Source: an uncultured Clostridia bacterium (GTDB lineage Bacteria; Bacillota; Clostridia; Christensenellales; UBA1242). From it: a stretch of DNA of 37,339 nucleotides. The notes below the pieces were generated by a model. That model saw nothing but the letters and a program-made list of their open reading frames with translations, was not told the origin of the DNA and ran no database searches. Positions 4,398 to 4,589 of the stretch are shown here, one piece after another. The stretch spans positions 1 through 37,339 of the forward strand of contig CALWCW010000086.1 of the NCBI GenBank assembly GCA_944376495.1, written 5' to 3'. The position numbers were made by a program, and so were the translations under genes. Positions within the stretch are counted from its first letter, which is position 1; each line of letters starts with the position of its first letter.

Positions 4398-4589
4398 ATG
4401 ATGAAAATTTTAAAAAATCCAAATATAACTATCTTTTCTGGATGTTATACACCATGCCAACAAGGTAGTAGTGGCGGAAACAAAATACTCAAGCCACAAA
4501 CAAATGATAAAAATATTATAATAGCTGGATGTTATACACCATGCCAACAGGGTAGCAGTGGCGGAAACAAACAGTTAGAAGTATGCTAA
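4398..4589 (+). CDS. Putative RiPP precursor peptide with two identical Cys-containing cores
   Basis: GCYTPCQQGSSGGNK occurs twice. Strong RBS (ATG 4401 has the better spacing). Directly downstream of the rSAM/SPASM gene. Confidence 0.8.
   Translation: MMKILKNPNITIFSGCYTPCQQGSSGGNKILKPQTNDKNIIIAGCYTPCQQGSSGGNKQLEVC
4438..4571 (+). repeat. 47-bp direct repeat (4438-4484 and 4525-4571), period 87 bp
   Basis: 45/47 identical; both differences are synonymous (CAA/CAG, AGT/AGC). Confidence 0.95.

Follow-up and report, generated by a model that had tools for sequence, protein, structure and literature searches.

A small gene at positions 4401–4589 on the forward strand of a 37,339-nt stretch of DNA (contig CALWCW010000086.1, positions 1–37,339) from an uncultured Clostridia bacterium encodes, with a probability of roughly 0.6, the precursor of a minimal two-gene system for a peptide synthesized ribosomally and then modified post-translationally (RiPP), in which one leader is followed by two cores and the maturase gene lies directly upstream. 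The whole stretch is referred to below as the window. According to this reading, a family-conserved N-terminal leader, which starts with MKIL, would dock as a strand on the N-terminal recognition domain of the maturase, and two 14-residue Cys cores joined by a variable spacer would follow it. The only family-wide conserved feature of the spacer would be a hydrophobic stretch ending in Ala or Ser and Gly, as is found before the first core. The maturase would modify both cores, most likely by introducing Cys-derived thioether cross-links of a sactipeptide- or ranthipeptide-like kind, and the product would then be released and exported. The second core may have arisen by an in-frame tandem duplication of a leader-plus-core unit; purifying selection together with recent homogenisation (gene conversion or re-duplication) would keep the two cores alike, and recombination between the repeats would readily give rise to one-core forms.

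Precursor gene, tandem cores and peptide family

The open reading frame (ORF) begins at either of two adjacent ATG codons, and its earlier translation (4398–4589, +) proved exact on re-reading. It comprises 63 residues from the ATG at 4398 or 62 residues from the second ATG at 4401. The latter start is the likelier one, because all seven homologues of the peptide have one Met at the start, followed by Lys or Thr. In public assemblies, the exact peptide is present as the 62-residue form on 31 contigs and as the 63-residue form on six, and the source genome carries one copy of the gene (4401–4589, +, stop codon included). The gene starts 51 nt 3' of the maturase gene (3129–4346, +), in keeping with the preliminary description of a RiPP-type precursor beside a radical S-adenosylmethionine (SAM)/SPASM maturase.

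A predicted sigma-70-type promoter (TTGACT-17 nt-TATAAT; 4351–4379, +) agrees with the consensus at 11 of 12 positions and is the top one of 24 sites scanned in the region 2000–5000. It is followed by a Shine–Dalgarno site, AAAGGAGG (4387–4394, +), located 6 nt 5' of the ATG at 4401 and 3 nt 5' of that at 4398. Between the convergent precursor and M18 aminopeptidase genes lies a hairpin with T-runs (4606–4650, strand not set), a probable bidirectional terminator; the scan called it on the minus strand, and on the plus strand, TTTTTT comes after the stem's G+C core. Judged by this promoter, Shine–Dalgarno site and terminator, the ORF 4401–4589 is a real gene. The peptide had no match to any Pfam or NCBIfam family, and the Rfam search over the whole window returned a single tRNA (18,125–18,198) and nothing at the precursor locus. 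Contigs from two RNA-library runs of one study span only positions 3790–4277, within the maturase gene, and contigs of this kind are no proof of transcription.

Based on the translation and the family alignment, the product consists of five parts, all encoded on the plus strand. The 13-residue leader (4401–4439), the N-terminal MKILK of which is predicted to dock on the RiPP recognition element (RRE) of the maturase, precedes the first copy of the 14-residue Cys motif GCYTPCQQGSSGGN (4440–4481). A 15-residue spacer (4482–4526), which starts with KILK and ends with a hydrophobic run and Ala, separates it from the second copy of GCYTPCQQGSSGGN (4527–4568). The C-terminal tail of six residues (4569–4586) starts with KQLE, like that of the single-core homologue P0005. 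The two cores lie 87 nt (29 codons) apart and are identical in protein, and a DNA comparison revealed just two differences between them, CAA/CAG (Gln) and AGT/AGC (Ser), both synonymous and in the third position, which reproduces the period and the substitution pattern noticed at the outset. The leader-like parts had been described as diverged with indels, and they indeed comprise 12 residues in the leader (after Met) and 15 in the spacer, both starting with KILK. A repeat scan placed the cores within a 73-nt direct repeat (4412–4484 and 4499–4571; 81% identity, offset of 87 nt), and the other repeat families of comparable length in the window are A+T-rich and of low complexity. A+T-rich low-complexity direct repeats with a period of ~27–31 nt were seen at 22,773–22,926.

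The identity of the cores at the DNA level exceeds what their protein sequence would require. When synonymous codons were drawn independently from the codon usage of the window, 6.6 of the 14 core codons were expected to be identical, as opposed to the 12 observed, among them the less-used TGC, GGC and AAC (P(≥12) ~0.0015). On the other hand, the four KILK codons of leader and spacer differ by 4 nt over ~2.2 synonymous sites. Since the cores are nearly identical in DNA while the KILK codons hold four synonymous differences, the core DNA points to recent homogenisation or duplication, besides purifying selection. As regards purifying selection itself, which had been proposed from the synonymous-only pattern, that pattern is by itself a weak sign: with 8.7 synonymous and 33.3 non-synonymous sites, both differences would be synonymous by chance with P ~0.043. 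The strong conservation of the core among homologues is what argues for it.

A word-indexed search for the peptide gave four proteins among four candidates, and a HMMER scan of the peptide profile against 1.84 billion representatives yielded 13 proteins with E ≤ 0.001; family members (P0027, P0028, P0004 and P0029) occupy the first four ranks. Two further profile matches, P0034 and P0036, are long repeat-rich proteins and were taken for chance matches; the remaining seven (P0030–P0033, P0035, P0037 and P0038; 523–1534 aa) are left out of the family count. In total, seven further homologous peptides were obtained, three with one core and four with two. The alignment thus consists of eight distinct sequences, of which the window type, P0003, its near relative P0014, P0027 and P0028 have two cores, and P0004, P0005 and P0029 have one; no three-core form is found among the eight. 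Across them, 10 of the 14 core columns are invariant and the variable ones are limited to Y/H, T/S, Q/K and S/K, while leaders, spacers and tails vary outside the core. The homologues asked for in the preliminary description therefore exhibit one or two copies of a nearly invariant core, and the constraint that it had suspected is borne out. A scan of viral contigs with the back-translated core pattern yielded no matches.

Outside the cores, two features recur in the family. All eight peptides share the start M-(K/T)-(I/V)-(L/I/V)-(K/R/H), and every core, whether it stands behind a leader or a spacer, is preceded by a hydrophobic stretch of 3–4 residues plus Ala or Ser, standing directly in front of G-C. 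The spacers of the five two-core peptides are 15, 14, 14, 13 and 9 residues long, and KILK opens that of the window type only; the others start with KPLT (P0003/P0014), RMAK (P0027) and RRGT (P0028).

Changes within the cores tend to be seen in pairs: P0028 has Lys at two positions in both cores, and P0027 has Ser for Thr in both, its cores differing mutually at the Y/H position. In shuffle tests, the window spacer resembles the spacers of P0003 (p = 0.002) and P0014 (p = 0.005) at least as closely as its own leader (p = 0.038); the sequences compared are short, and it is their hydrophobic end that drives the similarity. The comparison gives a hint that two cores may have been present before the window and P0003/P0014 lineages arose. 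One-core and two-core forms are both found among peptides with KQLE-type tails and likewise among those with I-(I/V)-A-K-R-type tails; therefore, the core copy number has changed at least twice. The simplest account of these patterns would be that purifying selection acts on the motif, that the core DNA was recently homogenised or re-duplicated, and that recombination between the repeats easily leads to loss.

Maturase and predicted leader docking

The ORFs 3129–3551 and 3561–4346 share one frame, interrupted by one in-frame TAA, and the read-through protein of 405 residues was identified by alignment and fold matches as an RRE–radical SAM–SPASM peptide maturase (3129–4346, +). The CxxxCxxC motif and seven C-terminal Cys residues are invariant in seven aligned maturase sequences. 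In the six intact ones, C86, C90 and C93 of the cluster motif and G135-G136-E137-P138 of the SAM-binding motif are invariant, and so are the seven Cys residues expected of a SPASM region with two auxiliary clusters (C309, C328, C368, C371, C377, C383 and C388). The SPASM domain model TIGR04085 scores 24.1 bits on the C-terminal piece, just below its cut-off of 27. The AlphaFold model of the intact homologue P0006 (mean predicted local distance difference test (pLDDT) score, 78.9) contains an N-terminal domain (strands 8–13, 16–21 and 27–31; helices 45–53 and 62–69), a barrel of the radical SAM type and, at the C-terminus, a Cys-rich part. Its top match in the PDB is CteB (5why/5wgg), followed by anSME, SuiB, TigE and ChlB. 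The CteB match extends over the whole length (TM-score, 0.64–0.68; Foldseek E-value, 3e-15 to 9e-14; 17–19% identity) and was also obtained by sequence profile (E-value, 3.4e-12). The N-terminal domain is assigned as an RRE on the grounds that the model aligns with CteB from the N-terminus and that the leader is docked there in the co-fold described below.

All of the named families that were tested score far below their cut-offs. The model of CefB (NF038107) gave 110.6 bits with P0006 and 85.9 bits with P0010 (cut-off, 600), and P0006 reached 106.1 bits with TIGR04463 (cut-off, 525) and 85.5 bits with the PapB ranthipeptide maturase model (NF047865; cut-off, 340). The geopeptide and SCIFF maturase models gave 84.1 bits (cut-off, 400) and 44.9 bits (cut-off, 425), respectively. 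No NCBIfam cut-off was approached, and the enzyme therefore represents an unnamed RRE–radical SAM–SPASM family, the nearest named kin of which act on Cys-rich peptides. Literature searches, supplements not covered, found no papers on TIGR04463, NF038107/Cys-every-fifth or CefB maturases, and returned only unrelated matches to the name CefB. The chemistry is probably that of thioether formation, as suggested by the two conserved Cys residues per core and the weak kinship to thioether-forming enzymes.

Judged by longest contigs of equal size (131857, 2998, 5003, 9527 and 2599), five of the peptide types can be matched with maturase homologues, the identities of which are 99, 65, 52, 52 and 47%. 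Co-folding of the intact maturase with the precursor gave an ipSAE of 0.68 (0.67–0.69 in three runs), and the best control gave 0.00; the pass mark is reached by 58 of 80 solved complexes and, among 110 mismatched pairs, by two. Agreement between the runs extends to 22% or more of the contacts, and the pLDDT of the partner is no lower than 32. Confident contacts were predicted between peptide residues 1–9 and maturase residues 18, 21, 24–30, 43, 47, 50–51, 54–55, 303, 401–402 and 405, those at 18–55 making up strand three and helix one of the N-terminal domain. Leader residues 1–9 are thus predicted to dock on the N-terminal domain in the classical RRE mode.

The preliminary description had assigned to each core a recognition sequence of its own, KILK..NIxI, and had proposed co-folding as a check. 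The co-fold did place the N-terminal residues 1–9 on the maturase, and these were the only ones placed with confidence; the spacer does start with KILK in this lineage, but in P0003/P0014, P0027 and P0028 the spacer has no such element. It follows that a conserved recognition sequence does not stand before every core of the family. Were the precursor a true leader-core-leader-core cassette, the spacer would act as an independent recognition sequence, recognition would take place separately for each cassette, and excision would yield a pair of identical small peptides. Such an arrangement appears doubtful, although several features fit it. Single-core homologues can be read as one cassette plus a tail, the window spacer starts with KILK like the leader despite the four synonymous differences, and a hydrophobic stretch with Ala or Ser before G-C is found at every core. 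The similarity of a leader to the spacer of the same peptide is weakly above shuffles in the window type (p = 0.038) and P0027 (p = 0.028), but it is not significant in P0003, P0014 and P0028. Moreover, one spacer has only nine residues, the confident contacts are limited to residues 1–9, and neither a protease in the locus nor a C39 domain in the 84%-complete genome was seen.

We prefer the arrangement of one leader and two cores, with a spacer that would need only its proximal hydrophobic element. The layout of P0029, in which a leader-like start and a spacer-like stretch of 20 residues precede a single core, fits a flexible tether behind one N-terminal leader. For the window lineage the cassette is still a candidate, as KILK seems to have been kept there through four synonymous differences.

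In-frame stop of the maturase and weighing of the evidence

The sole in-frame stop of the maturase, TAA at 3549–3551, belongs to a cluster of six C/G-to-T/A differences from other assemblies (3518–3551, +), which was found by contig comparison and which also destroys GGEP. The differing positions (3518, 3535, 3541, 3542, 3543 and 3549) all hold T or A in the window and fall within 32 nt. Full-length contigs of two DNA runs from two studies (X1 and X6) carry other letters at all six positions, restoring the invariant G-G-E-P and a Gln in place of the stop. The X1 contig is otherwise identical to the window over 3100–4700 (1601 nt), and that of X6 departs from it at two more places, by a substitution at 3703 and by one inserted base behind 4657. 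The 90%-identity maturase cluster has nine members, to which the 261-residue piece of the window itself belongs; six are intact 405-residue forms (99% identity exists), one of them on 21 contigs. Thus, the TAA is specific to this assembly and the maturase is intact in other assemblies. Either the gene has truly been inactivated at this spot, or the six clustered changes arose in the assembly.

The stop also bears on the notion that a recent tandem duplication, neutral in effect, took place in a gene cluster under decay, in which case the second core would be functionless and the locus a pseudogene remnant in this genome. Besides the TAA and the loss of GGEP in the window, a second assembly has the maturase split at another place (P0019 and P0021), the two cores hardly differ in DNA, as would be expected soon after a duplication, and the gene cluster occurs in one of 154 genomes of the genus. 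Nevertheless, decay is decidedly improbable in view of the six intact members among the nine of the 90%-identity cluster, the intact motif in full-length contigs from two studies, and four distinct two-core types with spacers of 9 to 15 residues. Furthermore, divergence is far greater in KILK and the remainder of the spacer than in the cores, unlike what a simple recent duplication would leave.

A number of observations weigh against the two-gene, one-leader reading. The window maturase keeps the Cys motif but has a non-motif and a stop at residues 136–141, and the system in this window may be dead. Genes for a protease, an exporter or immunity are not evident at the locus. The pairing of homologous peptides and maturases was derived from contigs of equal size and not from contig DNA. 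As for the co-fold, it was built on shallow alignments, the partner's own fold is uncertain (pLDDT, 33–38), neither core nor the spacer was given a confident contact, and complexes of leaders with RREs are already among the solved structures (CteB, SuiB and ChlB), so the pass may reflect likeness. The KILK of the window spacer, kept through four synonymous differences, would fit a functional second recognition sequence here. The thioether assignment draws on a weak similarity to Cys-peptide maturases, all scores lying far below the family cut-offs. Finally, homogenisation is read from one DNA sequence and from protein patterns, and the latter could equally be produced by separate duplications in the individual lineages.

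Genomic context and relation to known systems

Upstream of the maturase lies a gene for a SpoU/TrmH-family RNA 2'-O-methyltransferase (2261–3136, +; PF00588, E-value 2.9e-35; PF22435). The two genes probably form one operon, because the stop of the former overlaps the start of the latter by 8 nt. The methyltransferase scores 109 bits with the RlmB model (cut-off, 160) and 68 bits with that of NshR/TsnR (cut-off, 425), below both cut-offs. Within the genus it is an accessory gene (four of 154 genomes), and its family is broad: out of 1912 candidates, 932 proteins reach E ≤ 1e-30. Two of its homologues sit on contigs equal in size to those of maturase homologues, and in two genomes (G116 and G088) it occurs in other contexts without the maturase. 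Given this breadth and these occurrences, the methyltransferase was mostly set aside as an immunity gene; it is regarded as context, and membership in the system is not claimed. On the other side of the precursor gene, the convergent M18 aminopeptidase gene has counterparts of 47–52% identity in four of the five genus genomes searched and looks like a genus-conserved housekeeping gene. With these two neighbours, no dedicated excision protease is found at the locus, and a search directed at double-glycine processing found no Peptidase_C39 domain in the source genome, which is 84% complete, so that this is no evidence of absence. The SG/AG and GG sites named in the preliminary description stay putative cleavage sites.

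A bolder idea, and a long shot, would have gene conversion keep the two cores identical to supply a double dose of one 14-residue cross-linked peptide, with the cassettes cut separately, the 13-residue leader being sufficient, and the coupled SpoU-type rRNA methyltransferase conferring self-resistance to a ribosome-targeting product, by analogy to the thiopeptide logic of NshR/TsnR. That the peptide is no RiPP precursor at all, being a small Cys-rich peptide of another role (for instance regulation or the binding of metals) or an ORF called spuriously next to a radical SAM gene, is very improbable: it has no Pfam or NCBIfam match and the RNA contigs found leave its gene uncovered, but the pairing with maturase homologues appears conserved, the expression signals are strong, the co-fold passes against controls, and the maturase has the RRE-type N-terminal domain typical of peptide maturases.

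In the genus, the maturase was detected at E ≤ 1e-20 in one of 154 genomes, namely the source genome (G000) itself, and in the order in two of 401, the second being G239 (31% identity). In the draw of relatives, 14 of 61 genomes had a match at E ≤ 1e-5, and all except G000 at no more than 45 bits. The search of genome contigs gave 12 loci, of which only L018 (32% identity) spans the whole length, and that of metagenome contigs gave 38 loci with a best full-length identity of 24%. At least half of the sampled words of 3100–4700 are contained in 18 runs from 10 studies, mostly labelled as chicken gut metagenome. The system belongs to a rare, unnamed peptide natural-product family, so far mostly from chicken-gut metagenomes.

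The distant maturase relatives (31–32% identity) at L018, from a Clostridium sp. metagenome-assembled genome, and L068, from G239, both adjoin 30-residue Cys/Gly-rich peptides (L018, 10,009–10,101; L068, 2754–2846, minus strand). The 14-residue leaders of these peptides resemble the window leader, with Met, three hydrophobic residues and KK, and then K and hydrophobic residues before the first Cys; in L018, two ABC transporter genes lie 3' of the peptide. Because these relatives adjoin peptides with similar leaders, the sequences suggest a wider superfamily of very short precursors.

Elsewhere in the window, a small ORF without a family match (235–531) is followed by the overlapping paralogues 525–1010 and 922–1476, each with a Cys_rich_CPCC domain, a layout that recalls a toxin-tail and immunity array. 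An unrelated second small radical SAM protein of 280 residues (9423–10,265, minus strand; PF04055 and Fer4_12, no SPASM region) is closer to an activating enzyme than to a peptide maturase. The 659-residue protein encoded at 10,455–12,434 has an unusual combination of an N-terminal MatE match and a C-terminal HAD hydrolase domain.

Cyanobactin precursors contain conserved recognition sequences that flank each of the hypervariable cores, and dedicated proteases excise the latter. The present peptides share with them repeated cores in one precursor and a variable copy number, whereas in the present case it is the spacers that vary and the cores that are conserved, and the locus has no protease. 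CteB, the thermocellin maturase, is a thioether-forming RRE–radical SAM–SPASM RiPP enzyme; it is the best whole-length structural match of the maturase model, N-terminal domain included, and the predicted leader docking is of the usual RRE mode. The identity to CteB is 17–19% only, however, and the precursor described here has a 13-residue leader and two identical cores. CefB and TIGR04463 are radical SAM/SPASM maturases of Cys-rich peptides, and their models are the best two named ones, covering residues 6–379 and 13–380 of P0006, yet the scores are far below the cut-offs and the core here has two Cys four residues apart, not one at every fifth position. PapB-type ranthipeptide and SCIFF maturases likewise are radical SAM/SPASM enzymes that make thioethers from Cys. 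In the substrate of PapB, a single leader is followed by a short Cys motif in several repeats; in contrast, the repeats here are 14 residues long and set apart by a leader-like spacer. By analogy, the system appears to work like CteB/PapB-type leader-guided maturation of a Cys peptide, and yet it falls below every tested family cut-off.

The preliminary description called multi-core precursors uncommon for radical SAM RiPPs, which is overstated, as TvgA and WprA are already documented. According to the papers describing them, TvgA has a repeating TVGG motif in which TvgB makes cyclopropylglycine, WprA has three WPR motifs (positions 1–3, 19–21 and 37–39) that are 18 residues apart, with a single-motif sister precursor family, and the motifs are modified independently (PMC9062424, PMC11851443). 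The likeness consists in several motif copies per precursor and a copy number that differs among related precursors, and the differences in motifs of 3–4 residues, C–C cross-link chemistry and other enzyme families. The present precursor has one family-conserved leader and two motif copies, and the leader docks in the model. Set against TvgA and WprA, its repeated unit is longer and invariant, its spacer is leader-like, and there are signs of concerted evolution. Literature searches with a 7-letter core motif and on multi-core or cassette radical SAM RiPPs, supplements not covered, found nothing on this peptide family.

Since repeated modified motifs with variable copy number are documented for TvgA and WprA, the architecture is a variant of repeated-motif radical SAM precursors and no new principle, and known RiPP biosynthesis is not overturned. 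A radical SAM/SPASM RiPP family without a name is thereby added from uncultured gut bacteria with small genomes; having two genes only and one of the shortest leaders, the system should be easy to reconstitute. Nature supplies it with precursors of one core and of two, the spacer length ranging from 9 to 15 residues, and this series can reveal how a maturase that depends on a leader gets to a distant second core, and whether gene conversion keeps tandem cores identical.

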